From a virus: a stretch of DNA of 38,615 nucleotides. The notes beneath the pieces were generated by a model, which saw only the letters and a list, made by a program, of their open reading frames with translations, was not told the DNA's origin and did no database searches. The translations under genes and the position numbers were made by a program. Below, in pieces: positions 23,458-37,453 of this stretch (the stretch's first letter is position 1; every line of letters begins with the position of its first letter). The stretch spans positions 1 through 38,615 of IMG/VR virus record IMGVR_UViG_3300002461_000316; one strand, given 5' to 3'.

Positions 23458-23526
23458 GCTGCACCTGTGAGAAGGGGCAGTCAGCGTTGTGAGCGCTGCT
23501 GCCCCATCGTGGATCGGCTGGTCGGG

Positions 23527-23853
23527 TTACGCCGCCTTGGCGGCATGCTCGGGCTGCGGGATGATCACTGCGTGGCCATCGCGCACGTTGCGGTTCCACC
23601 CCACCATGACGCCCTGGACGTAGGCGAGCGCCATGTCGTCCTTGTTCTGGTCCTCGATCGCCACAGGCGAGATCGAGCGATCCATCGTGTCCTGGTTGAG
23701 CGAGCGACGATCGCGGTACGAGAGCACGATCGCCTGCGGCTTGCTGCCGTAGCGGGTGACGTAGTCTTGGATCAGGTTGCTGACCCCGTCGAAGGTCAGC
23801 GACGCCGTGAAGGGCTCGAGCGTCGCTGCCTTCTTGAGCGTGTCGCCTAGCAT
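23527..23853 (-). CDS. Hypothetical protein, 108 aa
   Basis: ATG at 23853. High third-position GC. No recognised motif. Confidence 0.5.
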   Translation of the reverse strand: MLGDTLKKAATLEPFTASLTFDGVSNLIQDYVTRYGSKPQAIVLSYRDRRSLNQDTMDRSISPVAIEDQNKDDMALAYVQGVMVGWNRNVRDGHAVIIPQPEHAAKAA

Positions 23854-23860
23854 CGGTCGG

Positions 23861-24448
23861 CTAGGCGATCAGGCCGCCAATCGCGCTGCCGCTCGTGTAG
23901 GCCGAGCAGCGCATCGTCATGTAGCGGGCGAGCGCGACCTCGACCTTCACCGAGCCGCCGCCAACCGCGCCGAACGCCGGGATGGCGATCTCGCCGGACA
24001 TCAGCGCATCCGCGAAGCCGGCAACCGGCGCGCTGGCCGAGCTGGTGTAGTAGTGCTGCGTCGCGTCGATCGAGTCCGCTTTCTCGAATACGATCGTGCC
24101 GACGAACACGGCTGCCGCTCCGAGGTCGGAAGCCCACGCCACGGCGCTATGCCCGGGCAGGAAGGGCGACTCGTCGCAGATGACCGACACGGTGGCGGTG
24201 CCGCCGAAGGTGCCGTTGCCGACAGAGCCGTTGAGCGCGGCCGTGGTGGCGGCGACTGCGCGCAGGGTCCACTCGCCGTTCATTGCCAAAAGACCAGTCA
24301 CACCGGCGATGGCGAGACGAGATCCGTTGCGCTGCCGGTGGCCCGCGGTGAGGGTGGCAACGATCGGGGTGGCGTTGGTGCCGCCTGTGATCAACACGCC
24401 GCGCGTCGCGCCGGACACGGACCCGAGAGACTTGATCTTGTTCGACAT
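23861..24448 (-). CDS. Hypothetical Gly/Thr/Ala-rich beta protein, 195 aa
   Basis: AAGGAG SD lies 7 nt upstream of ATG 24448 (ATG 24454 is too close to the SD). SLGSVSGATRGVLITGGTNATPIVATLTAGHR...NGEWTL. The long 315-aa track ORF is an upstream extension. Confidence 0.5.
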   Translation of the reverse strand: MSNKIKSLGSVSGATRGVLITGGTNATPIVATLTAGHRQRNGSRLAIAGVTGLLAMNGEWTLRAVAATTAALNGSVGNGTFGGTATVSVICDESPFLPGHSAVAWASDLGAAAVFVGTIVFEKADSIDATQHYYTSSASAPVAGFADALMSGEIAIPAFGAVGGGSVKVEVALARYMTMRCSAYTSGSAIGGLIA

Positions 24449-24585
24449 CGTCATACTCCTTGAGGAGAGAGGCCCCTCTGCCCGCAGGAAGATGGCGATC
24501 CTGCTGCGCCCGTGGATCTCAGTCGTCGGCCCACGTCGACGTGAGAACCAAGCGTAGCGTATTGCAGCGAGAATGCACCTCCCGG

Positions 24586-24873
24586 CTATACCGGGAACAT
24601 GTACTGCGCCAGGTCGGGGTCGTCGGGGTCGACCGGTGCGAGGTACACGCGCCACAGGCGCTGCCCGCGGTAGACGTAGTCGAGATCGGGCGGGCACGCG
24701 TGCGGGTACTCGTCGAGGCGGACCACGCGCGCCGGCGTCTTCGGCAGCCTGCAGCCGTTCTCGCCCTGGATCTGGACGATCTCGCCGACGGTGAGCCGGT
24801 TGGCCCACTTGTCGCTGCGCAAGGTGATGAGCGGCAGCCGGCCGGGGTCGTGGGAGAAGCCCATCACCCGCAT
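24586..24873 (-). CDS. Hypothetical protein, about 95 aa
   Basis: ATG at 24873 (or 24864) overlaps the stop of the Tat-signal gene. No recognised motif. Confidence 0.45.
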   Translation of the reverse strand: MRVMGFSHDPGRLPLITLRSDKWANRLTVGEIVQIQGENGCRLPKTPARVVRLDEYPHACPPDLDYVYRGQRLWRVYLAPVDPDDPDLAQYMFPV

Positions 24874-25100
24874 GACGGGTACTCGACTGGGATCGTCTCG
24901 TCGAGCCACTGGTGCGGCGCCCGCTCGGGATCGATCACGCTGAAGCCCGAGTAGTACCCGATCGCCATCTTGCCCATCTGCTCGATCTCGGCAGCGGTGA
25001 AGCCGGACATCAGCGACGGCGCAGGCTCGAGCTCGATCGCCGGGGCCTTCGGAGCGAGCGCGGCAGCGACCATGCCGCCCAGGAAGGCGCGGCGCTTCAT
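24864..25100 (-). CDS. Small exported protein with twin-arginine (Tat) signal peptide, 78 aa
   Basis: MKRRAFLGGMVAAALAPKAPA-IELE: an RRxFLG twin-arginine motif, a hydrophobic h-region and an A-x-A cleavage site. AGGTGA SD. Confidence 0.6.
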   Translation of the reverse strand: MKRRAFLGGMVAAALAPKAPAIELEPAPSLMSGFTAAEIEQMGKMAIGYYSGFSVIDPERAPHQWLDETIPVEYPSCG

Positions 25101-25194
25101 GGCTTCACCTGCACGAGCGTGACGACGTACACGTCCCCGTTGATCGACACCATGTCGCCGTCGTCCAGCTCCCTGGACGTCGTGAACGTCGCCG

Positions 25195-25653
25195 CTACCT
25201 GCCCCGCCAGTCTGTCTCGTCCCAGGCGAGCTTGCCGAGGTTGCAGTGGCTGCAGAGGACTTGCAGGTTGTCCAGGCTCAGGGCAAGGTGCGGATACCGG
25301 CTGCGCGGCTTGATGTGGTCCACGTGCAAGGCTGCCGTTGGCGTAGGCCGCGATCCGCAGCACTGGCACCTCCCACTCGAGCGGAGCAGGGCCTTGTATC
25401 GGATCACCCGCCATGCGGCGCTCGTGTAGAAGTCCGCGGGCGAGTGCGACGGTGCGCTGGATGTCCATGGAGAGCCAGTGAGGGACTCGGCACATGGCTG
25501 GGTCGCAGCGCCCCACGTCCCGCAGGTCGGCCGCCGCAGCCGCGGGCCGAAGAGCAGAGCGCTGAGATCGGACAGGAAGCTCAAGGGGATCGAAGCCCAG
25601 GCCACGGGGGCCTCGATCATGCAGCTGCGACACCCGCTCGGCAAGGCGCGCAC
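25195..25653 (-). CDS. HNH endonuclease (start uncertain: GTG 25653 or ATG 25620)
   Basis: C-terminus: RCQCCGSRPTPTAALHVDHIKPRSRYPHLALSLDNLQVLCSHCNLGK. This shows CxxC ... HVDH ... N ... CxxC/HxxN, the classic HNH layout of terminase-associated endonucleases. Confidence 0.75.
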   Translation of the reverse strand: MRALPSGCRSCMIEAPVAWASIPLSFLSDLSALLFGPRLRRPTCGTWGAATQPCAESLTGSPWTSSAPSHSPADFYTSAAWRVIRYKALLRSSGRCQCCGSRPTPTAALHVDHIKPRSRYPHLALSLDNLQVLCSHCNLGKLAWDETDWRGR

Positions 25654-25665
25654 GACTGTGCGTGT

Positions 25666-26067
25666 TTACCCTCGCCACGGCTCTCCCCCCAGCTTGTGGC
25701 GCAGCAAGGCGTCGAGCCTGGGGTCGACATACGCCTGGCGCTCCGGGTCGCCGGCGTTGCGACCGAATGCCTCGGCGATCGGGGAGGCAAGCGGATCGTC
25801 CCGGTCCTGGCCCATCAACCACTGCAGCGCCAGCTCGATCGTGTACTCGAGCCCCTCGCGCGCCAGGCGCAGCGCCGTCTCAAAGTTGGGCGCCTGCACG
25901 ACGATGCAGTTGCCAGCGAAGAGCGCACCCTTGACGTACTCGAGGCCGCGGTAGCCCTGGATCGTGAACATCCAGAGCTTGTAGCGCGAGAGCTGACGCT
26001 CGAGCGTGACGCCGCGGTCCTTCAGCTCGACGAGCTCGTCCATCGACAGGATGGCCCGGCGCAGCAC
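25666..26067 (-). CDS. Hypothetical protein downstream of terL (start uncertain: GTG 26067 or ATG 26043)
   Basis: The frame is coding-like through ...LVLRRAILSMDELVELKDRGVTLERQLSRYKLWMFTIQGYRGLEYV.... The 294-aa track ORF would overlap terL. Confidence 0.45.
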   Translation of the reverse strand: MLRRAILSMDELVELKDRGVTLERQLSRYKLWMFTIQGYRGLEYVKGALFAGNCIVVQAPNFETALRLAREGLEYTIELALQWLMGQDRDDPLASPIAEAFGRNAGDPERQAYVDPRLDALLRHKLGGEPWRG

Positions 26068-26120
26068 CAGCTCCTGCTCGATTCGCTCGACCTCGCGCTG
26101 CGCCTCGACCGCTTCTGGCG

Positions 26121-27683
26121 TCAGTGGACGAATGTCCTCTGTCGCGCCAGCCTCTCCCTCTCCTCCGAGTCCATCTTGTCCAACCAGTCCATCGTCCACT
26201 GTTTCGGCCCCTTCACTTTGCGCTTCGTTGGGATTGCCCGGGCCTTCGGCCTGGACATGCATGCGTACCTGACCTCGTCGATCGGGTGATCCTCCTGGTC
26301 GGTGTCGATGTCCTCGACCTTGAGCTCGTCGTGCTGGACGGCCTGGATGACGCGTATGCCATCGGGCTGGTTGTCCATGAGGAACAGCGAGGCGCTGCTC
26401 GGATCGTCTGGGTCTTCGCGCAGGCGCTGCCTGAGCTGATCCCAGCCAGGCTCGCGACGCTTGTCGGCCTTGCGCATGGGCAGCGTGCGGCCGTGGTGCT
26501 TGACCTTCATCGCCCGCTCGGCGAGCGACGGGCCGCCGTCCTCGGCCCACATCTGCGTGTCACAGACGACGTACTCGAGCTTCTCGTCTGCTGGCGTGCG
26601 CTCCATGACGCCCTTGGCCCACGCCTGCACGTTGAGCTTGAGGCCGACGTTGTTCTGGTCCGGCTTCGACCCGTACCACTCCCGGTATCGCACGAGCGAC
26701 CCACGCGGGACGACGATGCGGTTGCCCAGCATGCCCTCGGCCACCCAGTCGTCGGCGGCGATTGCGTACCAGCCGACGCTGAACGGCTTGGCGCTGCCCC
26801 AGTCGACCGCCGCGAATCGCTTGGTGAAGATATTGTCGGGGAGCGTCTTCGCCTTCAGCACGTGGTGCTCGAGCGAGAACTCGGGGAAGAACCCGCCGGC
26901 CAGGATGTTCCAGTCGCCGAGCTCCATCGCCTTGACCAGTGCCGGGTCGCCCAGACCGCGCATGCGGTTGACATAGGTCGGGTCGGCCTCGACGCCTCGC
27001 GGGTTGTCGGTCAGACGCGCGGGGATGTACTGGCGGATCATGCCGCCCTCGATCTGCTTGGTGCGCCTGGGCTCGGTCGCGTGCGGCACGTCGATGAAGG
27101 TGCGCTTCACCCAGTGGTGCCCGACGTTGCCGGGGTTCGATCCGCACAGGATCCGCGGGAAGACGTTCTGCTGCAGCACCGAGCCGTCCGGCATCACGTG
27201 CCCTTCGCGGTAGTGTGCCGGCAGGTCGATGTTGACCATCCGCACCCGGAAGCGCAGGTAGCGGTAGATCGACTCGGTGAACGTGGTGAGCTCGTCGATC
27301 ATCAGCACGTGGATCTCGGAGCCGTGGTACTTGTACTTGTGCTCCTCGTCCTTGCAGTGGCAGAGGAAGATGCGACTGCCGTTGGTGAAGCGGATCTCGC
27401 CTTGCAGCACCTTCGCCCACGGCTTGTCGGCGAGCATGTTGCGGAACCCGGTCGGCCCCTCGACGTGGTTCTTCACGAGGTCGTCCTCGACCCGGCGGAA
27501 GATGTAGGCCTGCAGCCCCGGGATCTCGATGCACCAGGAGATCGCCGCCTGGCGCATGAGGTGCGACTTGCCGCCGAACGCGGCGCCGCCGTAGAGGATC
27601 TCGGTCGCCGGCGAGCGATAGCAGTACAGCTGCTTCGGCTGCAGGTTGGCCTTCCACTGCGGTGGCGTACCGTCGAACGGCAT
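26121..27683 (-). CDS. terL: Terminase large subunit, 520 aa
   Basis: Walker A-like GGAAFGGKSH near the N-terminus, size, and position directly after terS. GGAGGAG SD. Confidence 0.85.
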   Translation of the reverse strand: MPFDGTPPQWKANLQPKQLYCYRSPATEILYGGAAFGGKSHLMRQAAISWCIEIPGLQAYIFRRVEDDLVKNHVEGPTGFRNMLADKPWAKVLQGEIRFTNGSRIFLCHCKDEEHKYKYHGSEIHVLMIDELTTFTESIYRYLRFRVRMVNIDLPAHYREGHVMPDGSVLQQNVFPRILCGSNPGNVGHHWVKRTFIDVPHATEPRRTKQIEGGMIRQYIPARLTDNPRGVEADPTYVNRMRGLGDPALVKAMELGDWNILAGGFFPEFSLEHHVLKAKTLPDNIFTKRFAAVDWGSAKPFSVGWYAIAADDWVAEGMLGNRIVVPRGSLVRYREWYGSKPDQNNVGLKLNVQAWAKGVMERTPADEKLEYVVCDTQMWAEDGGPSLAERAMKVKHHGRTLPMRKADKRREPGWDQLRQRLREDPDDPSSASLFLMDNQPDGIRVIQAVQHDELKVEDIDTDQEDHPIDEVRYACMSRPKARAIPTKRKVKGPKQWTMDWLDKMDSEERERLARQRTFVH

Positions 27684-27689
27684 GCTGCG

Positions 27690-28301
27690 CTACTCCTCCG
27701 TGATGCCCTGCTCCTCGAGCGAGAGCACGCGGAAGCTCTGGTCGAGGGGCTGACCCTGCACGTTGATGATCACGGTCGCCGGTACCGCGGTCTGGTTGCC
27801 CTGCTGGTCGCGATCGACCGGCGAGCCCAGCTTGTCGAGCACTGCGTCGGCGGCCGCCTTCTTCGACTCAAACTCGAGCTCGGTGATCACCCCGGCGTCG
27901 AACTTGATCTTGCGGATGCACGAGGCCTGCTCGAATGTGAGCGCCTTGATGCCGACGAACCGCCCCTGGTCGTCGACGAAGTCGCGCCGATCGCTGTCGA
28001 GGATGTCGTTGTACGTGCGCAGCGCCTTCTCGACCATGTCGGGGAACTGCTTGGGCAGCTCCGAGCGCATGATCTCCAGGTGCGCCTGCACGTGCGAGCG
28101 GCGCAGGATCTCGTAGCCGCGCACCCCGGGGTTGCTCGGGTGCTTGCCGCCCTCCTCGCCCTTGACGCCCATCCTGCGGGCCGCCTCGGAGGCGTTGAAG
28201 TTGCAGCGCAGGTAGTGCTCGAGGAACGTCTTCTCGACGATCGACAGCGGCCTGAGCGCCGGCTTCTTCGCCGGCTTGGCCGGCAGCGTCTTGCTCGCCA
28301 T
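27690..28301 (-). CDS. terS: Terminase small subunit (Terminase_2-like), 203 aa
   Basis: LSIVEKTFLEHYLRCNFNASEAARRMGV...GYEILRRSHVQAHLE matches the conserved N-terminal HTH pattern of small terminase subunits. ATG at 28301 abuts the upstream stop (TGATG). Confidence 0.75.
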   Translation of the reverse strand: MASKTLPAKPAKKPALRPLSIVEKTFLEHYLRCNFNASEAARRMGVKGEEGGKHPSNPGVRGYEILRRSHVQAHLEIMRSELPKQFPDMVEKALRTYNDILDSDRRDFVDDQGRFVGIKALTFEQASCIRKIKFDAGVITELEFESKKAAADAVLDKLGSPVDRDQQGNQTAVPATVIINVQGQPLDQSFRVLSLEEQGITEE

Positions 28302-28564
28302 CAGTTGAACCTCTGGCCCGGCAAAGGCGCGGCCGCCTCGAGTTTGAACGCCCCCAGCACATGCTCGTGCCCGACGTGCGCGAGGTTCCACAGTTCCGCG
28401 GGCAACCCGATGTAGCGGTACATCACCGTGTCGCCATCGCATGCGTACAGGATCAGCGTGTCCACCTTCTTGCCCGCCATGTCGAGCAGCAGCTGGCGGA
28501 TCTCGGCGAGGATCTTCTCCCGCAGCTGCTCTTCGTTTTCGGCCTGCTCGATCACTGTCGTCAT
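28301..28564 (-). CDS. Hypothetical protein, 87 aa
   Basis: ATG at 28564 (ATGA overlap). MTTVIEQAENEEQLREKILAEIRQLLLDMAGKK... Confidence 0.5.
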   Translation of the reverse strand: MTTVIEQAENEEQLREKILAEIRQLLLDMAGKKVDTLILYACDGDTVMYRYIGLPAELWNLAHVGHEHVLGAFKLEAAAPLPGQRFN

Positions 28565-28836
28565 CCCATTGCTCCGAATCGTGTGCCCGTGCGCAGGAAG
28601 CCCGTGCGAGGGCGTGGTCGCTTCATCGAGCTGCGGTGCCCGCCCATGTGGTAGAGCCCGCAGAACTCGCACTTGTACGCGCTGACCCGCCCAGCATCGG
28701 GACGGCGCAGGATCGCGTCGGTCGGGTTGAGGAACACCCGCTTGCCCTGGCACTCGACCAGGCGCCGGCGCTCCCGGTGGATGTGGGCCTCGAGCTTCTC
28801 GATCACCTTGGCCCAGTCGACCTGCGCGCCGCTCAC
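28561..28836 (-). CDS. Hypothetical small protein with CxxC motif, 91 aa
   Basis: GTG at 28836 overlaps the RuvC-like stop (GTGA). ...ECQGKRVFLN...YKCEFCGLYHMGGH. Confidence 0.45.
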   Translation of the reverse strand: MSGAQVDWAKVIEKLEAHIHRERRRLVECQGKRVFLNPTDAILRRPDAGRVSAYKCEFCGLYHMGGHRSSMKRPRPRTGFLRTGTRFGAMG

Positions 28837-29360
28837 GCCGCGAGCTCCAGCTTGGGCCGCTCGCCGAGGAACGAGTCGGCCAGGCGGGACTGCTGCGCGC
28901 CGTAGCGGGCCAGGAGGATCGCCTCTGCCCTGCCGTGGTCCTTCTTGCGCGCCAGCGCTTCGCAGCCCGGGTACAGCCGGATGGCCGCGGCCCGTGCCGC
29001 GTTCTTGTCGCTGTCGAGCGCGTAGGAGCGCTTCCAGGTCTTCGGATGCACGCGCTGCACCGAGAGACCGATCGCTTCGCACACGCCGCGGATGCAGCCG
29101 CGGGTGTCGCCCAGGCTGAACATCGAGCTCACGCCCTGCCCTGGCATCGCGCCGACTTCCTCGATCCACACCTCGGCGATGTCGACGACATGCAGCCGCA
29201 GAAGCCTGGCGAGTCCGACGCCGTCGACCTCGTTGGCCTTGCGCGCCTTCTTGCCGGCGTCGCGGATCGGCATGTCGACCACCCACTGCAGCGAGCCGCT
29301 CGGCGTGACGGCTGCGAGTGCCCCGGTGATGCCCGGATCGATTCCCACGATCAGTCCCAT
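28833..29360 (-). CDS. RuvC-like Holliday junction resolvase, 175 aa
   Basis: MGLIVGIDPGITGALA carries the RuvC N-terminal catalytic Asp motif. It has a central acidic residue (EEVGAMPGQG) and C-terminal GRAEAILLARYG. GGAGGTGG SD upstream of ATG 29360. Confidence 0.75.
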   Translation of the reverse strand: MGLIVGIDPGITGALAAVTPSGSLQWVVDMPIRDAGKKARKANEVDGVGLARLLRLHVVDIAEVWIEEVGAMPGQGVSSMFSLGDTRGCIRGVCEAIGLSVQRVHPKTWKRSYALDSDKNAARAAAIRLYPGCEALARKKDHGRAEAILLARYGAQQSRLADSFLGERPKLELAA

Positions 29361-29557
29361 GCTGCCCACCTCCACTGTTCGACCTCCTGTCGCGTCGCCC
29401 GACGAACCATTCGCCGGGTCATCACGCTGGGGTACTGCCGGTGCTCGAGCACAGGCGCGCCGCGCTTGATCACCTCCACAACCTTGCTCATCGTGCTCGG
29501 CTCCGGGGGCGTCGCGACCCATGCCACGCCGTCGGCATCGAAGACGATGTCGATCAC
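29351..29557 (-). CDS. Hypothetical protein, 68 aa
   Basis: GTG at 29557. Overlaps the RuvC-like start by 10 nt. No recognised motif. Confidence 0.4.
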   Translation of the reverse strand: MIDIVFDADGVAWVATPPEPSTMSKVVEVIKRGAPVLEHRQYPSVMTRRMVRRATRQEVEQWRWAAWD

Positions 29558-29573
29558 GCCTGCGCCCTTCTTC

Positions 29574-29611
29574 TGTCACCCCTTGACATCACTGTCACCG
29601 GGTGACACAAT
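29574..29611 (+). promoter_or_regulatory. Sigma70-like promoter with two TGTCA-N5-TGACA inverted repeats (operator candidates) driving the plus-strand cassette
   Basis: TTGACA (29583-29588), 17 nt, then CACAAT (29606-29611). IR1 TGTCAcccctTGACA (29574-29588) overlaps the -35. IR2 TGTCACCgGGTGACA (29593-29607) is a perfect 15-bp palindrome filling the spacer and reaching the -10. Confidence 0.6.
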
Positions 29612-29658
29612 GACTGCACGGTGATCGATTGATGACCGACAACGAAACGGAGATGACA

Positions 29659-29868
29659 ATGAGCAAAATCGAAATCGCAGTCGACACCCCCGAGTCCGAG
29701 CAGTTTTGCGCCTGGCTCAACGCCCAGGGGCATGACGCCAGCGTCGGAAATAGCACCGGCAACTACATCGACGGCGTGCTGTGCCATGGCCGACAGGACG
29801 ACGACGGTGAGGCGGGAACCGCGATGAACTCTCTGTGGACCGCCTACTGCGACCAGCCCGCCGCCTAA
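29659..29868 (+). CDS. Small strongly acidic protein, 69 aa (cassette gene 1)
   Basis: GGAG lies 6 nt upstream of ATG 29659. MSKIEIAVDTPESEQFCAWLNAQGHDAS...GRQDDDGEAG has 11 D/E against 2 K/R (counted by hand). Confidence 0.55.
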   Translation: MSKIEIAVDTPESEQFCAWLNAQGHDASVGNSTGNYIDGVLCHGRQDDDGEAGTAMNSLWTAYCDQPAA

Positions 29869-29892
29869 CCCACCCAACCCAAGGAGACGAAC

Positions 29893-30204
29893 ATGCAAGC
29901 CAACCAAGCCATCGACTACCTGCAAACCTGCCAAGCCATCCCGGCGCGCGCCATGTCCAAGCCCATGTTTCGCCTCGTTCGCGCCGCCGCCCGTTGCGCC
30001 GACCGCGCTTACCCCGGCATGGCTGGCTACTATGATCCCGAATACGACGGCCCTCGCGCCGACATCAACGCGTTCCGGTTTGCCGCCCCTTGGTCCGCTG
30101 ACGTGATCCCGCAGTCGCCGCGTCTGCAAGCCCTGCTGGCCGAGCGGTTCCCGGTTGCCGATCCGTGGTCTAACGCCAACTTTTTCGCCAAGCTCGTCCT
30201 GTAA
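29893..30204 (+). CDS. Hypothetical protein, 103 aa (cassette gene 2)
   Basis: AAGGAG SD lies 6 nt upstream of the ATG. No recognised motif. Confidence 0.55.
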   Translation: MQANQAIDYLQTCQAIPARAMSKPMFRLVRAAARCADRAYPGMAGYYDPEYDGPRADINAFRFAAPWSADVIPQSPRLQALLAERFPVADPWSNANFFAKLVL

Positions 30205-30207
30205 CCC

Positions 30208-30426
30208 ATGACCCCGCGCGCATTCGATGCGGCCCTCGCCGCCACGCGCATGGACCCGACCGGCAGCACCGCTCGTGCTTGCCGGCTGGTTCTGGTCGAC
30301 GGCCAGAGCCGGGAAAAGGCCGCGCAAGCCGCCGGCATTGATCGTGCGGCCGTCTCTCGAGCCGTCGCCAAGCTGATGCCGAGGCATCGCTGCCCGCACT
30401 GCCACGGCACCGGCTACACGTCCTAG
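30208..30426 (+). CDS. TrfB/KorA-like HTH transcriptional regulator with C-terminal CxxC-H motif, 72 aa (cassette gene 3)
   Basis: ARACRLVLVDGQSREKAAQAAGIDRAAVSRAVAKL resembles IncP KorA as I recall it (ARGVLVDGKPQATFATSLGLTRGAVSQAVHRV). The protein ends ...HRCPHCHGTGYTS. Confidence 0.55.
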   Translation: MTPRAFDAALAATRMDPTGSTARACRLVLVDGQSREKAAQAAGIDRAAVSRAVAKLMPRHRCPHCHGTGYTS

Positions 30427-30428
30427 CA

Positions 30429-30884
30429 TCACGACTCCACCCCCGCGAGCTCGAGGCCCGCTTCCCGATCTGCCTCGATCTCGCGGATAAGCCAGTACTG
30501 CGGGAGGGCGCCCCAGTGCCGCTCGAGCTCCCAGGGCGGCGGCCCGAGGGCCATCCGCTCGAGCCTTCTGCGCTTGGCGTTGGCGGCTCTCTCGGCCTGG
30601 CTCTTGGCGAGCGTGCGCAGTTCCGCCTCGATGCGGTCGAGCTCCTCGAGCACCCTGGTCAGCGGCACGGTCAGCCGGTAGGTCGCCGGCGTGTGCTGGT
30701 GCTGCCCGCTGCCGGCGGCGAATCCCTGCTTGCGCAGCCAGTAGATCGCGTTCTTCGCCGGCGCCTCGTCGATCCGCAGCCGCTCCAGCAGCACGCGCCT
30801 GGTCGTGGGTCCACCGCAGAGCTCGCGCGCGATGTTGGCGATGTGCGCGGGTGGCCGGCGGGTGCGGGGCATCGAGTGCGTCAT
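30429..30884 (-). CDS. Winged-helix-like DNA-binding protein (replication/regulatory accessory), about 151 aa
   Basis: ATG at 30884 (the track start at 30956 is a GTG overlapping the upstream gene). ...RRVLLERLRIDEAPAKNAIYWLRKQGFAAGSG... is followed by a coiled-coil. Confidence 0.4.
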   Translation of the reverse strand: MTHSMPRTRRPPAHIANIARELCGGPTTRRVLLERLRIDEAPAKNAIYWLRKQGFAAGSGQHQHTPATYRLTVPLTRVLEELDRIEAELRTLAKSQAERAANAKRRRLERMALGPPPWELERHWGALPQYWLIREIEADREAGLELAGVES

Positions 30885-30934
30885 GCCGCCACCTGAGCCG
30901 GATTCTGAGGCCGCTTGATGGGCATCAGACGCCT

Positions 30935-31138
30935 CTAGATCGAGCACCACTCCCACTCACGCTCAGGCCTGCGAGGCCGCGGCGGCAGGGCATTGCCGAC
31001 GCCGTAGGGCCTGCGGTCCTGCACGATCTCGGCATGCTCGCGGCAGTACCAGGGTCCGCTGCCTGTGGTGCTGTTGATCGCCACGACGCCGGTGTGCATG
31101 CATGGCACGCCGCTGCGGTTGTCTACGAAGTCGCACAT
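30935..31138 (-). CDS. Small Cys-containing protein, 67 aa
   Basis: GAGGGAG SD lies 6 nt upstream of ATG 31138. MCDFVDNRSGVPCMHTGVVAINSTTGSGPWYCREHAEIV... Confidence 0.5.
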   Translation of the reverse strand: MCDFVDNRSGVPCMHTGVVAINSTTGSGPWYCREHAEIVQDRRPYGVGNALPPRPRRPEREWEWCSI

Positions 31139-32148
31139 GCTTTGCTCCCTCTGAGCTTGTCGAAGATCTTGGTCTTGAGGCTGTCGTAGGTGTCGCTCTG
31201 CAGCGCGTGGATGCCGAGCTCGCGGGCCTTGCGGTCGATCGACTGCGGGGAGGTCCACCAGGCGTCTGTGGGCGCCTTGCGCTCCGGTGGCGCAGGCGGG
31301 TGCAGGATGTCCTGCACGATCGCGTCGAGGTACTTGGCGGGGATGAGCGCAGGGGCTGGCTTCTGCAGCCTGGCTCGCTCGACAGCGTCGTCGAGCTGGG
31401 CGTCGGTGATGCCTGCCTCGGCCCACTGCTGCACGACCGGGTGTTGGCCTGTGACCTGAACACCAGCAGCGCGCGCACGGGCGGCGATGGCACCGGCGCG
31501 GGTCGGAGACACCAGGGTCGGGGCTATAGCGCGCTGCTTTTGATTTTGAAGTTTAAGGTCTTGTCCTGTCTTGTCCTGTCCTGTCTCTTCTACAGGAGAC
31601 CCTAAGGAGTCCTTACGCTCTGCTTGTTGCACTCCATGTTGGAGTCCTTGTTGGACTCCTTGTTGGATCGACGAAGGAGATCCCGAAGCAGCGCCTCTTC
31701 CGCCTTCCGAGCCGCCTTTGCCCGTTCCAGGTTCATTGCCGTTATGACTTGCAGCCCACCGTCTTTCATTTGCTTTCGCGCTCCGTTCCTTGAACTTTTT
31801 CCGACGCTCCCATGCCTCGTTCGCCTCCTCGCACAGCACCCTGTGGTACAGGCGACCATCCGAGCATTTGACGAAGCCGCGCAGCGCCATGCTCTTGACC
31901 TTCCCCCATCTTGGGCCGGCACCGCTGAACGCGCGCAGCACCCGCTCGTCATCGGGCAATGACCCCGGGGGCGTCTGCTTCCAGGCTCGGCACCACAACA
32001 TCATCGCCGCCCAACACTCCTCGGGCGTTCCCAGCGCAACGAGCTCGGAAGCCATGAGCCGGTCGACGTTGAGCATGAAGCCGCTGAAGCCGCACAGGTC
32101 GACGTCTGCTGCGACAAGTGGGGCAGGTAGTTCACTCATGGTCACCAT
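31123..32148 (-). CDS. DUF1376 (YdaU)-type phage replication protein, 341 aa
   Basis: The N-terminal region FMLNVDRLMASELVALGTPEECWAAMMLWCRAWKQTPPGSLPDDERVLRAF fits the DUF1376 pattern. The central low-complexity linker is encoded by the iteron block. The C-terminus is helical. Confidence 0.6.
   Translation of the reverse strand: MVTMSELPAPLVAADVDLCGFSGFMLNVDRLMASELVALGTPEECWAAMMLWCRAWKQTPPGSLPDDERVLRAFSGAGPRWGKVKSMALRGFVKCSDGRLYHRVLCEEANEAWERRKKFKERSAKANERRWAASHNGNEPGTGKGGSEGGRGAASGSPSSIQQGVQQGLQHGVQQAERKDSLGSPVEETGQDKTGQDLKLQNQKQRAIAPTLVSPTRAGAIAARARAAGVQVTGQHPVVQQWAEAGITDAQLDDAVERARLQKPAPALIPAKYLDAIVQDILHPPAPPERKAPTDAWWTSPQSIDRKARELGIHALQSDTYDSLKTKIFDKLRGSKACATS
31533..31667. promoter_or_regulatory. 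Candidate origin of replication: AT-rich stretch plus tandem short repeats inside the replication gene
   Basis: AT-rich ctgcttttgattttgaagtttaaggtc (31533-31560). gtcttgtcctgtcttgtcctgtcctgtctc (31558-31587). Four tandem 12-mers: ctgcttgttgca, ctccatgttgga, gtccttgttgga, ctccttgttgga (31620-31667). Confidence 0.55.
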
Positions 32149-32360
32149 CCGTAGAGATTGCGCGCCCCCGGGTAGGGCCGCGGCGTGATTGCGGTGTCAT
32201 CGGCCCCCTGCTGCTTTGGGCTGGGCTTGAGCCTGGCCTCGCGCTGCCAGCGGTAGGCTGTCGAGCAGCCGATCCCGAGCGCCTCGGCGACATGCCATGG
32301 GCTCTCGCCCGCGGCGAGCAGGGCCTCCGCGGCGCGTCGGATGTGGGACGAGCAACTCAC
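32142..32360 (-). CDS. Small HTH protein, 72 aa (in the cII-like position)
   Basis: GTG at 32360 overlaps the Cro-like stop (GTGA). AAGESPWHVAEALGIGCSTAYRWQRE is an HTH. Confidence 0.55.
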   Translation of the reverse strand: MSCSSHIRRAAEALLAAGESPWHVAEALGIGCSTAYRWQREARLKPSPKQQGADDTAITPRPYPGARNLYGW

Positions 32361-32617
32361 CCGGCCTCTCGGAGTGAGGCCACCACGCGGGGGCGGCGCC
32401 GGCGTGGCACGATCGGTGCTACCACCGACGCGAGCTCAGGGAAAAAGTCCAGAACCGTGACCTTGTGCCCTGTCAGCTGCTGTATGGCGATGGCATGCTT
32501 GAGAGGTACGCGGCCGCGCCAGGTCCAGTTCGTGACCGCCGTCGGCACGACGCCCAGTTGGTTGGCCAGGTCCGCTGTGGACCCGGCGATTTCGATGGCT
32601 GTCTTTAGAGGAGTCAT
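32357..32617 (-). CDS. Cro/YdaS-like HTH regulator, 86 aa
   Basis: MTPLKTAIEIAGSTADLANQLGVVPTAVTNWTWRGRVP is the YdaS/Cro-type HTH pattern. It is divergent from the cI-like gene. ATG 32617 is preferred over 32662 because promoter and operator motifs occupy 32626-32669. Confidence 0.7.
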   Translation of the reverse strand: MTPLKTAIEIAGSTADLANQLGVVPTAVTNWTWRGRVPLKHAIAIQQLTGHKVTVLDFFPELASVVAPIVPRRRRPRVVASLREAG

Positions 32618-32730
32618 AGCTCGTGAGGATACACACCGTGGGTGTTCTTTGTCAATCACCATACGTTGCTGGCAACGAGCCAGCGTCAGAGGCTATAACT
32701 ACGCCTTGCACACGATTGGTGATTCACGAG
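32618..32730. promoter_or_regulatory. Divergent immunity control region with three related operator-like 15/16-mers
   Basis: Site A CACACcgtGGGTGTT (32632-32646). Site D on the minus strand GCAACgtaTGGTGATT (32654-32669). Site C CACACgatTGGTGAT (32709-32723). The leftward promoter has -35 TTGACA (rc of 32650-32655), an 18-nt spacer and -10 TATCCT (rc of 32626-32631). That -10 ends 8 nt before ATG 32617, so the transcript is near-leaderless. Confidence 0.55.
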
Positions 32731-33102
32731 ATGTCTTTTTCCCAACGCCTCAAGCACTTCCGGGCGGCAGCTGGCCTCACGCAGCGCGCCCTCGGGAACG
32801 CCTGCGGCTGGGGCGAAGGGATGTCGGCTCAGTCGAGAGTCGGCAACTACGAGCAAGCGCTCCGCGAGCCGTACCTCACCGACATCGTCAAAATGGCCAA
32901 AGTCCTGGGTGTCTCGCCAGAGCTGCTCGCCTTCGGCGACCGATCCGAACTCACCGACGACGAGCTCGAGCTGCTGCAGGCCTACCGCCAGGCGGACAAG
33001 GATGGCCGGGCCAGCTTCAAGGCGCTGTCCAAGGCCTTGCAGCGCTCTACCGATCGACTGCGCCCTGTGGCGCCGAACGACGTGTCCACGAAACGTCGGT
33101 AA
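32731..33102 (+). CDS. cI-like XRE-family HTH repressor, 123 aa, no S24 peptidase domain
   Basis: MSFSQRLKHFRAAAGLTQRALGNACGWGEGMSAQSRVGNYEQALREPYLTDIVKMAKVLGVSPELLAFGD is an XRE HTH. The short C-terminus lacks the Ser/Lys autocleavage module. Confidence 0.75.
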   Translation: MSFSQRLKHFRAAAGLTQRALGNACGWGEGMSAQSRVGNYEQALREPYLTDIVKMAKVLGVSPELLAFGDRSELTDDELELLQAYRQADKDGRASFKALSKALQRSTDRLRPVAPNDVSTKRR

Positions 33103-33128
33103 GTGGTACCTGGTTTCGGTATTTTTTT
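33089..33128 (+). terminator. Intrinsic-terminator-like hairpin plus T7 run after the cI-like gene
   Basis: cgaaac (33089-33094) pairs with gtttcg (33113-33118). An inner ggta/tacc pairing follows, then gtaTTTTTTT (T run at 33122-33128). The stop codon lies in the loop. Confidence 0.5.
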
Positions 33129-33198
33129 CCGAAAGGGACTTGTCTCACCCGGCTGCGCGTGGCATCGTCTTAGGCCCTGCCCGCTCACCGAGGATGAG

Positions 33199-33372
33199 AT
33201 GCAGCAACCGCAACACCTGACGATCGAAGAGATCGCCGCCGTCTACGCCCTACGCTCCCTCACCCCCGCCCAGCGCACACTGGCTTACGCGTTCCTCGCC
33301 GAGATGTCCCGCGCGAACCCGCAGCCGACTGAGATCCCCGCCACAAGCAACGTCGTCCCGCTCCGCAGGTAA
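33199..33372 (+). CDS. Hypothetical small protein, 57 aa
   Basis: ATG at 33199 with GAGGA upstream. MQQPQHLTIEEIAAVYALRSLTPAQRTLAYAFLAEMSR... Confidence 0.4.
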   Translation: MQQPQHLTIEEIAAVYALRSLTPAQRTLAYAFLAEMSRANPQPTEIPATSNVVPLRR

Positions 33373-33414
33373 ACACCCATCGTCGGCCTGGCGCGCATTT
33401 GCGCGTCACAGAAT

Positions 33415-33457
33415 CACACGACGGGTGTTGACACGACTACACCGCGTGTGTTCTAAT
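33415..33457 (+). promoter_or_regulatory. pL-like early promoter with an operator copy
   Basis: TTGACA (33428-33433), 18 nt, then TCTAAT (33452-33457). Site B CACACgacGGGTGTT (33415-33429) has the same ends as site A in the immunity region and overlaps the -35. CACACG/CGTGTG arms (33415-33420 and 33445-33450) flank the promoter. Confidence 0.55.
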
Positions 33458-33499
33458 GAGCTCTCAGTCGCAGCCCGCGACGCAAACCGGAGAGCTCAG

Positions 33500-33952
33500 A
33501 TGGAAGGCAACCTGTACGTCACCAAGGAAGAAGTCGCAGCGCTCGTGAAGGCCAAGTTCGCCGGGAAGTTCCCTGGCCACGACATCACCATCGATCTCTG
33601 CAGCTACGGCAACACCCGCATCGAGATCAAGCCGTCCCTGCCGGCTGCCCCCGCCCTCGTACCCGTCTCCGAAATGACCCTGGACTACGGGCTGACCCCC
33701 GCCGAGGCGCAACAGCACTACGTCGAGCTGAACGAAGAGGCGGCGCGCATCGCCCTGGCGCGCTGCCTGCGGGTCATCGCCGCCGCGGTGGACCACACCG
33801 ACGCCTACGAGCCGCTGACCAGCTTGGCTGACGACATCGAAGCGCAGGCCGAGCGGAACATCGAGCGCGCCGCAACCGACGAAGCCGAGCACGACTACGG
33901 CATGCGCACGTCGGCACGCTATCGCAAAGCGATGATTGGGGAGGCGGCATGA
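33500..33952 (+). CDS. Hypothetical early protein, 150 aa
   Basis: GGAGAG SD lies 5 nt upstream of ATG 33500, downstream of the promoter at 33428-33457. Confidence 0.55.
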   Translation: MEGNLYVTKEEVAALVKAKFAGKFPGHDITIDLCSYGNTRIEIKPSLPAAPALVPVSEMTLDYGLTPAEAQQHYVELNEEAARIALARCLRVIAAAVDHTDAYEPLTSLADDIEAQAERNIERAATDEAEHDYGMRTSARYRKAMIGEAA

Positions 33953-34275
33953 GCGACTGGACGCCGGGACCGTGGACTATTTATCCAGAAACAGATGGCA
34001 CAGAAATATGTGCTGTAACGATGGCACCGAAACTACCTATTCGGCAAGTCATCGCGCATCCGGTCAGAGGGGAGAACTGGATCGCCAACGCCCGCCTAAT
34101 CGCCGCCGCTCCGGATCTGCTGGCCTATGCGGAATGCGAAGAGGCTCGCGCGTGCTGTGAAGACATCGCTGAGACGGTACTGAAGCGCCACGGCTACAAG
34201 CCCGGCGAGTCGTCTCACGAATTCATGGACAAGATGCGCCGCGCCGCCCTCGCAAAAGCCAGGGGCGAATCATGA
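33949..34275 (+). CDS. Hypothetical early protein, 108 aa
   Basis: ATGA overlap. MSDWTPGPWTIYPETDGTEICAV...NARLIAAAPDLLAYAE. Confidence 0.55.
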   Translation: MSDWTPGPWTIYPETDGTEICAVTMAPKLPIRQVIAHPVRGENWIANARLIAAAPDLLAYAECEEARACCEDIAETVLKRHGYKPGESSHEFMDKMRRAALAKARGES

Positions 34276-34442
34276 TCGACACCCTCTGTTGGGCCTGCTC
34301 GACCTCGTACCCGATCCCGCATGCAGCCTGCCCGCACTGCGGCGCGACGAACCCGAACGTGGATCTGGAGCGCGCTTACCGTGAAATGGATGACCGGACG
34401 CTGATCGCGGAGCCGGCGTTACTTAGGAGACAAGCAGCATGA
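34272..34442 (+). CDS. Zinc-ribbon mini-protein, 56 aa (below the ORF-track cutoff)
   Basis: Hand translation: MIDTLCWACSTSYPIPHAACPHCGATNPNVDLERAYREMDDRTLIAEPALLRRQAA. It has CxxC...CxxC and ATGA-type overlaps on both sides. Confidence 0.5.
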   Translation: MIDTLCWACSTSYPIPHAACPHCGATNPNVDLERAYREMDDRTLIAEPALLRRQAA

Positions 34443-34654
34443 TCACGCACCTCACGTTCCACCGCATGCCCGAAGACAAAGCCATGCACAGATCCGACAC
34501 CCTCCGCGAGCTGCCGACGCGCGTGCCGAGTGACGAGTTCGTCGAGATGCAGAAAGCACCGGGCGGGTTCTTCGTCATGCTGTTCTGGTCGGTCATCGGC
34601 GGCGCTTTGATCTGGGCGCTCGTGGTGCTTCTGCTCTCGTTGGGGAAGTCATGA
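34439..34654 (+). CDS. Small membrane protein, 71 aa
   Basis: C-terminal TM segment FFVMLFWSVIGGALIWALVVLLLSL. Confidence 0.5.
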   Translation: MITHLTFHRMPEDKAMHRSDTLRELPTRVPSDEFVEMQKAPGGFFVMLFWSVIGGALIWALVVLLLSLGKS

Positions 34655-35745
34655 GCGACATGATGAAGCCGTACATCGAGGTCGGCACCCTTCCCCGCGA
34701 GTCCTACATCGGCGGCCCCGATGCGGCGTGCGTGATGAACGTGAGCCCCTACCGCACGGCGGTCGACTGCTTCTTCAGCAAGGTCGACCCGCAGCCCGAG
34801 GTCATCAGCGAGGAGAAGCGCAAGTTCTTCCGCCGGCGCAAGCACCAGGAGCCGATCATCGCCGCGATGCTCGAGGAGGAGTACGGCATCGTCGTCACCC
34901 GGCTGTCGATCGACGAGCACCCGAACCGCTACCAGGACGTCGAGTACCCGTTCCTGGCCGCCGAGATCGACTTTGAGTTCCTGATGTCGCCCTCTGTGCG
35001 CCTGCGGTTCCCGGAGCGGCCCGACTTCCGCGCGATCCCCGACGGCACGCTGCTTGCCGGCGAGATCAAGACCGTCCACCCGTTCAGCGCCCACGAGTGG
35101 GGCGAGCAGGGATCTGAGGAGGTGCCTACGCACTACGCCGCGCAGGTCATGCACGGGCTGGGCATCACGCGGCGGCCGGCAGCTCTGGTGGTCGCCCTCT
35201 TCGGCCTCGACACCCTGATGGCGTTCCCGGTCATGGCTGACCAGGAGACGATCGACTTGATGCGCGCCGAATGCGTGAAGTTCTGGACCGAGAACGTCCT
35301 GAAGCGCGTGCCGCCGGACCCGGTCAACCTGGACGACATCAAGCGACTCTACACGTTCAAGGCGTCGCGCCCGTGCTACCTGACCGACGAAGTCCACCGG
35401 GCGCTCGTGCAGATGCAGCAGGCGAGGGACACGATCAACGCGATGAAGGGCGACATTTCGTACCTCGAGCTCATCGTCGCCAAGCACATCGCCAACGCCT
35501 GGGGCAAGCCGCTGCTCGATGACGACGGCAAGGTCGAGATTGAGGCCGACGAGGAGGCGATCCTGTACCTGGGAGACGCCGAGGTCGGCAGCTGGAAGCG
35601 TCAGCGCGGCACGTACCTCGACCAGAAGAGTCTGGCCGCAGACAGGCCCGAGCTCGTCCACGCCTACACCGTCGAGCACCACTACCGGGTCTTGCGGCTC
35701 AAGAAGCCGAAGGCCACATCGAAGTCCAACCGGAAAGGGAAGTAA
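34651..35745 (+). CDS. YqaJ-type (lambda Exo-like, PD-(D/E)xK) recombination exonuclease, 364 aa
   Basis: IGGPDAACVMNVSPYRTAVDCF matches the YqaJ N-terminal motif (G-x-S/P-D-a-a-x-i-x-x-x-S-P-Y-x-T). AAEIDFEF and LAGEIKTV supply D...ExK. It lies directly upstream of recT. Confidence 0.75.
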   Translation: MSDMMKPYIEVGTLPRESYIGGPDAACVMNVSPYRTAVDCFFSKVDPQPEVISEEKRKFFRRRKHQEPIIAAMLEEEYGIVVTRLSIDEHPNRYQDVEYPFLAAEIDFEFLMSPSVRLRFPERPDFRAIPDGTLLAGEIKTVHPFSAHEWGEQGSEEVPTHYAAQVMHGLGITRRPAALVVALFGLDTLMAFPVMADQETIDLMRAECVKFWTENVLKRVPPDPVNLDDIKRLYTFKASRPCYLTDEVHRALVQMQQARDTINAMKGDISYLELIVAKHIANAWGKPLLDDDGKVEIEADEEAILYLGDAEVGSWKRQRGTYLDQKSLAADRPELVHAYTVEHHYRVLRLKKPKATSKSNRKGK

Positions 35746-35747
35746 CC

Positions 35748-36707
35748 ATGTCCACCCAAGCACTGAAGACCGTCGCACAGAAGACAGCCGTCGCGGAGAA
35801 GCCGAAGGATTTCCCTGCGATGCTCAACGCATGGCTGCCCGAGATCCAGCGGGCGCTGCCGAAGCACCTGTCGGCAGAGCGCATCGCGCGAGTCGCCCTG
35901 ACGGCGTTCCGCCGCAACCCGAAACTCGGAGAGTGCGATCCCCGCTCCGTGTTCGCCGCGGTGCTCCAGGCTGCGCAGCTGGGCCTCGAGATCGACACCC
36001 TGGGGCGCGCGTACCTCGTGCCCTACGAGAAGCGTCAGAAGGTCGGGAACCGCTGGCAGACCGTCGGCGTCGAGTGCCAGTTCATCCCCGGCTGGAAGGG
36101 GCTCATCGACCTGATGAACCGCAGTGGCGATGGCACCGTCTGGACGGGCGCGGTCTTTTCCGGCGACGAGTTCGACTGGCAGCTGGGCGACAGCCCGTTC
36201 GTCAGGCACATCCCCCGCGGCGAGCTCGATCCGCTGCGCATGACGCACGTGTATGCGGTCGGCCGGGTGAAGGGTTCCGATTGGCCGATCATCGAGGTGT
36301 GGCCCGTCGAGAAGATCTGGAAGCACCGCGACCGCTACAACAAGGTCGGGGACAGGCACTACTCGTTCACCAACCCCGAGATGTACGCGCGCAAGGTGCC
36401 GCTGCTACAGGTGCTCAAGTACATGCCCTGCTCGACCGAGCTCTCGAGGGCAATCGCGGCCAACGATGACGCCGAGATGAGCCGGCAGAACGTCAATCTA
36501 CACGACGCGATCCAGGGCGAGTACACGCCCTCGGTCGACAACGGCAACGGCGGCGACGATCTGGAGTTCACGAAGGGCGACGCTCTGAAGATGATCGAAG
36601 ATGGTGATCTCAGTGGCGCCGAGCAGGTTGCGGCGACCCTGGACCTCGACGAGGCAAACGAGGTGCGCGCCGCGATCGATGCGGCGAAGGCTCCGAAGAC
36701 CGAGTAG
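35748..36707 (+). CDS. recT: RecT-family single-strand annealing protein, 319 aa
   Basis: PKLGECDPRSVFAAVLQAAQLGLEIDTLGRAYLVPYEKR is the conserved RecT core. It is paired with the exonuclease. Confidence 0.8.
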   Translation: MSTQALKTVAQKTAVAEKPKDFPAMLNAWLPEIQRALPKHLSAERIARVALTAFRRNPKLGECDPRSVFAAVLQAAQLGLEIDTLGRAYLVPYEKRQKVGNRWQTVGVECQFIPGWKGLIDLMNRSGDGTVWTGAVFSGDEFDWQLGDSPFVRHIPRGELDPLRMTHVYAVGRVKGSDWPIIEVWPVEKIWKHRDRYNKVGDRHYSFTNPEMYARKVPLLQVLKYMPCSTELSRAIAANDDAEMSRQNVNLHDAIQGEYTPSVDNGNGGDDLEFTKGDALKMIEDGDLSGAEQVAATLDLDEANEVRAAIDAAKAPKTE

Positions 36708-36713
36708 ACCAAC

Positions 36714-36788
36714 GGGTGCCCGGCCACGTCAGGACGCAGTGACGTAAAACCGCCGCGCAAACCTCCGGGTGTACCCGGCCGGGCGCCC
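36714..36788 (+). ncRNA. Candidate structured RNA element in the recT-downstream gap
   Basis: A 12-bp outer stem pairs gggtgcccggcc (36714-36725) with ggccgggcgccc (36777-36788), with one G-U pair. It encloses an acgtca/tgacgt hairpin (36726-36745). A competing ccggg-tgta-cccgg hairpin lies at 36765-36778. Confidence 0.35.
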
Positions 36789-36817
36789 ACCCCCACTTAC
36801 CCACAGGAGAAGTTGAT

Positions 36818-37421: not shown

Positions 37422-37453
37422 CCGGCCTGCACCTCCACATCAAGGACAACAGC

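Follow-up and report, generated by a model that had tools for sequence, protein, structure and literature searches.

A candidate acr-aca-type autoregulated cassette with a KorA/Aca4-like regulator in a temperate lambdoid phage

A three-gene cassette with paired inverted repeats in its promoter

The stretch of DNA analysed here (hereafter the window) is the 38,615-nucleotide IMG/VR virus record IMGVR_UViG_3300002461_000316, which carries a cassette of three small plus-strand genes (genes 1 to 3) headed by a promoter that two inverted repeats (IR1 and IR2) overlap. Bases 1-82 are duplicated at 38534-38615; the assembly is therefore circular, and the window is the complete genome, about 38.6 kb, of a temperate phage. 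The original prediction, made from the letters of the DNA, had likened the cassette to the phage operons in which anti-CRISPR (acr) or other anti-defence genes are followed by an anti-CRISPR-associated (aca) gene for a helix-turn-helix (HTH) repressor. The following features make up the cassette:

29574-29588, plus strand: IR1, TGTCACCCCTTGACA, read as TGTCACC-C-cTTGACA, with the -35 hexamer as its right arm
29583-29611, plus strand: sigma70-type promoter, TTGACA (29583-88), 17 nucleotides, CACAAT (29606-11), with an extended -10 TG at 29603-04
29593-29607, plus strand: IR2, TGTCACC-G-GGTGACA, a 7+1+7 palindrome that fills the spacer and touches the -10
29619-29638, plus strand: stem-loop CGGTGATC-GATT-GATGACCG at the predicted 5' end of the transcript, -9.1 kcal/mol
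29659-29868, plus strand: gene 1, 69-residue acidic cargo protein and candidate inhibitor, Shine-Dalgarno sequence GGAG 6 nucleotides upstream
29893-30204, plus strand: gene 2, 103-residue cargo protein, starting after a 24-nucleotide gap
30208-30426, plus strand: gene 3, 72-residue KorA/Aca4-type HTH protein (Pfam KORA) with a CPHCHGTG tail, predicted autorepressor

The near-consensus promoter that had been claimed here was found in its place, as were the two repeats of one design, one lying on the -35 and the other perfect within the spacer. This promoter was the sole sigma70-type match within 28800-31200, and only one other match of at least 10/12 occurred in 20000-38615, namely a PR-like promoter before cro. 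Taken alone, the promoter match is not above chance genome-wide (2 seen, 1.5 expected), and its significance comes from its context. IR1 repeats the design of IR2 with two mismatches where its arm makes the -35, and the two centres are 19 bp apart. The pattern TGTCA-N5-TGACA occurred twice in the 38,615 bases, both times on the cassette promoter, compared with a mean of 0.01 in shuffled sequences, none of which reached two (0/100). Relaxing the operator motif to three mismatches revealed no further site anywhere in the genome, and the predicted regulon of gene 3 is therefore the cassette promoter only.

Related loci are numbered here with the prefix L. Scans in which aligned relatives of gene 3 were compared with contigs from viruses and metagenomes gave 5 and 33 loci. 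Seven related loci, with five distinct promoter sequences, had TTGACA, 17 nucleotides and a -10-like hexamer in the same place, the hexamer being TAnnnT except in L019 (GACCAT). The layout of inverted repeats in the core promoter recurred in L006, L013, L014, L015, L019 and L023. In L013, L014 and L019, IR1 was conserved as (T/C)GTCACC-C-(C/G)TTGACA between flanks that were otherwise unrelated. The same three loci contained hairpins (-8.5 to -13.3 kcal/mol) of different sequence at the same offset from the -35 as the stem-loop of the window. These hairpins suggest that structure at the 5' end of the mRNA is conserved, perhaps to stabilise the transcript, or else that an additional (third) operator is present. 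At the other end of the cassette no terminator was found after gene 3, which ends 2 nucleotides from the stop codon of a convergent gene for a 175-residue protein.

Gene 3 is related to Aca4 and KorA

The 72-residue product of gene 3 had been described as an HTH protein resembling TrfB/KorA, and profile comparisons agreed. It matched Pfam KORA with E=1.2e-5 (25.9 bits, just under the cut-off of 26.7), and among PDB structures a profile of gene 3 and its relatives matched the DNA-binding domain of TrfB/KorA (E=3.6e-5). The anti-CRISPR-associated proteins include a family of KorA type, Aca4, with 67 residues, KORA/HTH_23 assignments and 2W7N as its best template (PMC9410906). BLASTP aligned gene 3 to the Aca4 protein WP_071533911.1 with 35% identity over 54 residues (E=1e-5) and to WP_079381596.1 with 43% identity (E=4e-8), both within the HTH domain. 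A hidden Markov model (HMM) that we built from 10 published Aca4 sequences (supplement of PMC9410906) gave a score of 33.5 bits to gene 3 and of 16.5 bits to RK2 KorA, whereas clearly Aca4-like metagenomic proteins (L017, L018, L027, L028, L032, L034-L036, L038 and L051) scored 72-104 bits. Among published Aca4 proteins, Acr-associated members average 72% identity to the reference and solo homologues 42% (PMC9410906). Gene 3 is thus homologous to Aca4, yet outside the range described for it. Other searches added little: a word-based protein search with gene 3 returned the self-match only, one scan of genome contigs gave a single distant Aca4-like match, in Vreelandella, and a literature search for Aca4 work after 2021 brought up unrelated papers. 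A PADLOC match of gene 3 to JetC (E=0.019) was dismissed as noise.

Among the closest known counterparts are the acr-aca4 operons on mobile elements of Pseudomonas (WP_071533911.1; Marino et al. 2018; Shehreen et al. 2022, PMC9410906). In these, as in the window, a short run of genes for small proteins closes with the gene for a KorA/TrfB-type HTH protein of 65-72 residues, the promoter is strong and of constitutive type, with two related CACC/GGTG-core repeats, and the cargo varies. Unlike them, the window cassette has no known acr, its host is not Pseudomonas and it runs antisense to its neighbours. The proteins and the operators also differ. Gene 3 ends in ...KLMPRHRCPHCHGTGYTS, 16 residues past the HTH, and this CPxC tail, invariant in its subfamily, replaces the C-terminal helix SCRRGxxLA (SCRRG(L/I)xLA) of Aca4. 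Aca4 promoters carry the imperfect repeat tacaccc-N4-gggtgcA twice, in the spacer and the 5' untranslated region (UTR) (PMC9410906), whereas the repeats of the window, TGTCACC-N1-GGTGACA in design, lie on the -35 and the spacer; the Aca4 operator motif was absent from the cassette promoter. A check for a CACC-N-GGTG operator upstream of true Aca4-like metagenomic loci was uninformative.

Gene 3 also shares a homologous DNA-binding domain with KorA (TrfB; PDB 2w7n, 5clv) of the RK2 kil-kor regulon. As is proposed for gene 3, KorA acts as a dimer and represses strong promoters in front of small genes about which little is understood. Unlike RK2 KorA, gene 3 lacks the C-terminal domain for dimerisation and KorB interaction, has one predicted target promoter and is not accompanied by the KorA operator GTTTAGCTAAAC, for which there was no match with up to 2 mismatches. 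Because its tail is different, the KorA dimerisation domain and the Aca4 helix are missing and the operator is another one, gene 3 is, judged by sequence, a sister lineage that would work like Aca4 and not a strict member of that family. All ten of the Aca families tested, Aca4 included, repress their cognate inverted-repeat promoters by about 90% (PMC9410906). From this precedent and that of KorA, we infer that gene 3 probably represses the cassette promoter.

Relatives of gene 3 with the CPxC tail, a variant of KorA that seems to be undescribed, were also found in plasmids:

L063 (pMsip01, NC_012970), 2995-3249, Methylovorus plasmid: CPxC-tailed KorA-like gene upstream of parA/parB
L062 (NZ_CP139995), 2914-3150, Comamonas replicon: CPxC-tailed KorA-like gene upstream of trfA

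L033 was grouped with these two loci, in which plasmids that are conjugative or of TrfA type carry a CPxC-tailed KorA-like gene where korA classically lies. Membership in this regulator family thus does not by itself imply an anti-defence cargo. KorA controls the kil operons of IncP plasmids, and the cassette could likewise be a kil/kor-type or moron module, in which a KorA-like repressor curbs potentially harmful host-directed genes (for takeover, cell division, metabolism, superinfection exclusion or lysogenic conversion) and not counter-defence genes. Membership of gene 3 in the KorA family and the true korA position of its relatives in pMsip01 and the Comamonas replicon would fit such a module, and so would the classical moron signature of an own promoter, antisense orientation and presence or absence among relatives, together with a cargo for which no anti-defence homology was seen. 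On the other side, the Aca4 profile scores gene 3 above RK2 KorA, and both the KorA operator and the KorA C-terminal domain are absent; as for the incC/korB partners, no ParA or ParB was called in the annotated 20.2-38.6 kb, the first 20 kb not having been screened. Two observations set out below, the recurrence of gene 1 with an Aca10 homologue and an extreme turnover of cargo, DNA methyltransferases included, that is typical of counter-defence slots, also argue against a kil/kor or moron module. We consider this explanation, the main alternative to an acr-aca-type operon, rather unlikely.

Gene 1 recurs with three types of regulator

Gene 1 has 69 residues, of which 11 are acidic (D/E) and two basic (K/R), as originally described. 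All three genes of the cassette have a coding-type GC content at third codon positions (GC3). When we compared gene 1 with its 96%-identical copy in L006, eight changes were synonymous and one was non-synonymous, a clear sign in the sequences of purifying selection on the gene 1 protein. A 292-residue open reading frame (ORF) spanning the whole cassette on the minus strand (29554-30432) gave the reverse ratio in the same comparison (1 synonymous, 8 non-synonymous), and we therefore rejected it as spurious, an artefact of high GC that its composition also betrays. The similarity to other phages is confined to one block:

29617-29895, plus strand: mosaic block of 5' UTR, gene 1 and the ribosome-binding site of gene 2; 279 bp, 95.7% identical to L006, L007 and L009

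Outside this block the promoter is unrelated, gene 2 is replaced by an unrelated 62-residue gene and gene 3 is only 46% identical. Gene 1 recurs (98.6% identity in protein, 96% in DNA) in two phages with differing portal and replication genes, L006 and L007, which have an SU10-type versus a P22-type portal and DnaB versus Prim-Pol.

More distant homologues of gene 1 head cassettes with other regulators. At 64% identity (L053-L055), they head a three-gene cassette ending in a homologue of Aca10 (46% identity, E=8e-15), and it is through these cassettes, not through its own regulator, that the window resembles the acr-aca10 system (Aca10, Pseudomonas citronellolis; PMC9410906). At 60% identity, a homologue heads a two-gene antisense cassette that ends in a NikA-like ribbon-helix-helix (RHH) gene and lies inside a NinB/NinG region. 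By eye, we read a TTGACA-17-TAGTAT promoter with a spacer palindrome in the Aca10-linked cassette, and in the RHH-linked cassette a weaker match, TTGCAT-17-TACATT, whose spacer has an inverted repeat. Homologues of gene 1 with Aca10-like or RHH regulators (L052 1400-1468; L053 370-433) have in common a 5' UTR of about 60 nucleotides with a TGGAC...GTCCA hairpin, which differs from the 5' UTR of the window. The gene 1 family therefore accompanies three regulator types, Aca4-like, Aca10-like and RHH, and as far as sequence comparison can indicate, the guilt-by-association support for gene 1 is unusually good.

The pairing with an RHH protein, which has the fold of Arc and Mnt, also brings to mind an immI-like antirepressor, that is, a gene 1 product that inactivates the prophage CI and is silenced in lysogens by gene 3, in the way in which Mnt and Arc control P22 ant. 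A temperate phage with CI/Cro and an integrase, as this one is, and a strong promoter under predicted repressor control would fit such a role. However, gene 1 is 98.6% identical across phages whose CI proteins are only 30% identical, the cargo at sister loci is unrelated, and neither Pfam nor PHROGs nor the PDB gave a match to a known antirepressor. An antirepressor function is thus improbable.

The AlphaFold2 (AF2) model of gene 1 was a small alpha/beta fold with a mean predicted local distance difference test score (pLDDT) of 85.7. Foldseek comparison of this model with the PDB and BFVD gave nothing below E=0.1. A glutaredoxin/KaiB-like fold was considered and rejected, its matches having only E about 1, which is noise.

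Gene 2 belongs to a rare, stand-alone family

Neither gene 1 nor gene 2 matched Pfam, PHROG, NCBIfam, PADLOC or PDB sequences, and tblastn of all three cassette proteins against 50,697 GenBank phage records found none. The cargo proteins are thus unlike replication or housekeeping proteins, gene 2 is indeed an orphan of 103 residues, and the remark that neither small protein was recognisable held up after structure prediction and fold search. The family of gene 2 is rare and stands alone; it accounts for 25 clusters out of 1.84 billion representatives, its members are all about 100 residues long, and it has the invariant motif GYYDPE...R...PQS..L...D. Its AF2 model was helical (pLDDT 70.5), with the most conserved residues in low-confidence loops, and Foldseek against the PDB returned nothing below E=0.1. 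An identity as ribosomal protein S16 was rejected, since the PDB profile match reached only E=0.1.

Homologues of gene 2 sit among small accessory genes, some beside DNA methyltransferases, some solitary with a palindrome-bearing promoter and one directly after an RHH gene. An example of the solitary type is L057 (about 1470-1500), in which a TTGCGT-17-TATTAT promoter has the perfect 12-bp palindrome GTTACCGGTAAC in its spacer and no regulator adjoins; this gene lies just downstream of an N6/N4 DNA methyltransferase gene, with a TnpB gene nearby.

With gene 3 starting 3 nucleotides after a gene of about 100 codons, one might suspect a reverse-order toxin-antitoxin or abortive infection module, with gene 2 as the toxin and gene 3 as HTH antitoxin and autorepressor. 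A small HTH gene of autoregulatory type in that position would suit such a module, the homologue of gene 2 in L056 overlaps an upstream RHH gene, and Aca proteins resemble antitoxins (PMC9410906). Against this, homologues of gene 2 occur alone, with their own promoter and no adjoining HTH or RHH gene (L057 and L001), and homologues of gene 3 follow many unrelated genes, including the 62-residue replacement of gene 2. No toxin fold or family matched, and PADLOC was negative. We therefore regard a toxin-antitoxin pair as very improbable.

The cargo changes while the regulator and promoter stay

At least 11 related loci keep the regulator and the TTGACA-17 promoter, and between them they hold at least 16 unrelated cargo families. 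Comparison of 18 cargo proteins from 12 loci revealed no pairwise similarity except for one pair of DNA methyltransferases. In L015 and L023 the regulator and promoter are near-identical and the cargo is different. Conversely, gene 2 is swapped beside a 96%-identical gene 1 in L006 and L007, and L060, a relative whose resolvase is 84% identical, has no cassette at the junction. Cargo is thus exchanged as modules and the cassette is present in some relatives and absent in others, which means that the slot is variable and not invariant. A search for relatives with the neighbouring 175-residue protein gave no loci.

No Shine-Dalgarno sequence precedes gene 3, whose start lies 3 nucleotides past the stop of gene 2 (junction TAACCCATG). 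The junction of cargo stop and regulator start, TAACCCATGA, is common to loci with unrelated cargo (window 30202-30211; L006 6427-6436; L015 3995-4004), and it may serve both the exchange of cargo, by microhomology, and translational coupling.

DNA methyltransferases have a known anti-restriction function. The gene upstream of the CPxC regulator in L024 (126-656) and L048 (110-916) encodes an orphan DNA methyltransferase with an NPPF motif, and by its sequence such cargo is consistent with an anti-restriction role of the slot.

Wherever the flanks of a phage locus could be read, which was so in six loci, the cassette lies antisense between the replication/nin genes and the terminase. This orientation, together with the lack of a terminator, could mean that antisense transcription is itself the function, with a strong convergent promoter that throttles transcription reading through from the early genes to those for terminase and structural proteins, and with incidental ORFs. 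This we find barely conceivable: gene 1 bears the marks of purifying selection (8 synonymous versus 1 non-synonymous change), both cargo families are kept at protein level in other contexts and one relative manages without the cassette.

Genomic setting of the cassette

The gene order of the phage is lambdoid. Its GC content is 66%, its origin environmental, and its relatives are found in Betaproteobacteria; phages with such loci are uncultured and high in GC, and their hosts are probably Betaproteobacteria. A 39,982-bp contig from an activated-carbon metagenome matched the window at 100% identity. No DNA-level relative of the window was found among deposited GenBank phages, and the best GenBank phage match of the large terminase was at most 42% identical. 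Rfam and tRNA scans of the whole window gave no matches. Outside the cassette we assigned the following features:

Minus strand: genes for a Cro-like protein, an HTH protein, a DUF1376 replication protein, a 175-residue winged-helix-like protein, a 68-residue protein, a RuvC-like resolvase, the small and large terminase and structural proteins
Plus strand: genes for CI, YqaJ/RecT and the integrase
32357-32617, minus strand: Cro-like gene of the immunity region
32626-32655, minus strand: PR-like promoter TTGACA-18-TATCCT, directly 5' of the Cro-like gene
32731-33102, plus strand: CI-like HTH gene, 123 residues, divergent from the PR-like promoter

The cassette genes had been described as the only plus-strand genes in about 32 kb. 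By the public gene calls, which cover 20.2-38.6 kb, the region of about 20.2-32.6 kb is all minus-strand except for the cassette, and to that extent the statement is correct. For the first 20 kb it is not rigorously shown, as it depends there on a rough GC3-based pick of ORFs over the whole window; this pick adds plus-strand ORFs at 2091-2360, 20177-20713 and 24096-24557, which we judged to be spurious without a formal test.

Between the resolvase gene and the cassette, a 68-residue ORF (29351-29557, minus strand) is absent from the public gene calls. This ORF, whose GTG start is 17 nucleotides away from IR1, is kept at 72% DNA identity in the viral contig L061, and this conservation makes a real gene probable. 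In the structural region, a 2,132-residue ORF (3930-10328, minus strand) presumably encodes a giant tail or injection protein. The C-terminus of the tyrosine integrase (HDLRHS...LGH...RYSHL) spans the junction of the circular assembly, from 38480 to 320, and its DNA is 73% identical to the integrase of L014.

A model for the cassette

Together, these data suggest that this temperate lambdoid phage has in the cassette a genuine accessory operon of acr-aca type that regulates itself, and we give this model as a whole a probability of about 0.55. The architecture that had been proposed is present in full: a promoter of autoregulation type, small genes on one strand and a terminal HTH gene. Proteins of 69, 103 and 72 residues, gaps of 24 and 3 nucleotides and a location in a complete temperate phage genome are what acr-aca operons in general display, and so is a cargo that varies behind a kept regulator, with gene 1 found beside three regulator types.

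In this model, the repressor would be absent when the DNA enters the cell, and the sigma70 RNA polymerase of the host would fire the strong promoter at 29583-29611. The transcript, with its 5' stem-loop, would yield two small cytoplasmic proteins, the acidic 69-residue product of gene 1 and the 103-residue product of gene 2, and translational coupling would yield smaller amounts of gene 3. A gene 3 dimer, perhaps formed through the CPxC tail, would then bind the TGTCACC-N-GGTGACA-type repeats IR1 and IR2 over the -35 and the spacer/-10 and turn the promoter off. Shut-off would be needed because the cassette is antisense, lies stop-to-stop with the convergent 175-residue gene and has no terminator; unrestrained antisense transcription would collide with the phage's own operon running from replication to terminase. 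The cargo proteins would most likely be stoichiometric inhibitors of host immunity, whether of CRISPR-Cas or of another system. For genes 1 and 2 themselves we put an anti-defence role, suggested by association, at about even odds.

The acr-aca1 operon of Pseudomonas phage JBD30 (Stanley et al. 2019) and the acr-aca2 operon of Pectobacterium phage ZF40 (Birkholz et al. 2019) reportedly follow a similar course, with a burst of transcription from a strong promoter upon infection, after which the regulator represses its own operon at a pair of core-promoter inverted repeats, and this repression is said to shield neighbouring phage genes from excessive transcription. The model proposed for the window has the same burst and autorepression, but those two operons have a regulator of another HTH family, are co-directional with their surroundings and carry proven anti-CRISPR cargo.

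Several findings weigh against an acr-aca-type operon. The cassette is antisense, whereas acr-aca1 operons are co-directional with their neighbours. Its regulator is only a distant relative of Aca4, without the C-terminal helix, and acts in prospect on an operator that matches neither the Aca4 nor the KorA motif, the CACC/GGTG core alone being common; CPxC-tailed relatives of this regulator occupy the classical korA position of betaproteobacterial plasmids. Homologues of gene 2 mostly have no adjoining Aca-like gene. Finally, neither the window cassette nor any related cassette contained a homologue of a known Acr or other anti-defence protein, in a comparison that covered Acrs with a structure or family model and not those without a structure or HMM (AcrIC6-8, AcrIE9, AcrIF12 and candidate clusters).

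Implications

The architecture itself is already known, and candidate acr-aca operons are common. New are a KorA-type regulator lineage that has a CPxC tail and an operator of its own, a slot in which the antisense placement is conserved, and uncharacterised families of cargo proteins from a phage group that is still unexplored. More speculatively, and with considerable doubt on our part, CPxC-tailed KorA-type repressors, many with a DnaJ-like CxxCxGxG, might form an undescribed Aca-like class of dimers, held together by one zinc ion between two single CxxC knuckles and not by a protein dimerisation domain, and might mark a hypervariable counter-defence slot of temperate betaproteobacterial phages, located at the nin/resolvase-terminase junction and antisense in every case. 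Gene 1 could then represent a new family of inhibitors with a broad host range, which three unrelated regulator types would have recruited independently, and gene 2 and about 15 further cargo families could be new inhibitors, possibly of non-CRISPR systems.

If the cargo proves to be ordinary morons, the locus would be a well-documented but unremarkable accessory cassette. In either case, gene 3 and its 15-bp site make a compact repressor/operator pair, possibly zinc-dependent, that could serve as a genetic part, and the conserved antisense placement raises the question of whether such cassettes are insulated from the transcription programme of the phage or interfere with it. To our knowledge, almost no anti-defence genes have come from uncultured high-GC phages, probably of Betaproteobacteria. 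If the cargo is indeed counter-defence, a CPxC-tailed KorA/Aca4-like repressor with a TTGACA-17 promoter would provide an anchor for guilt-by-association mining in such phages, and about 16 small protein families would become candidates, among which gene 1 is the best supported.

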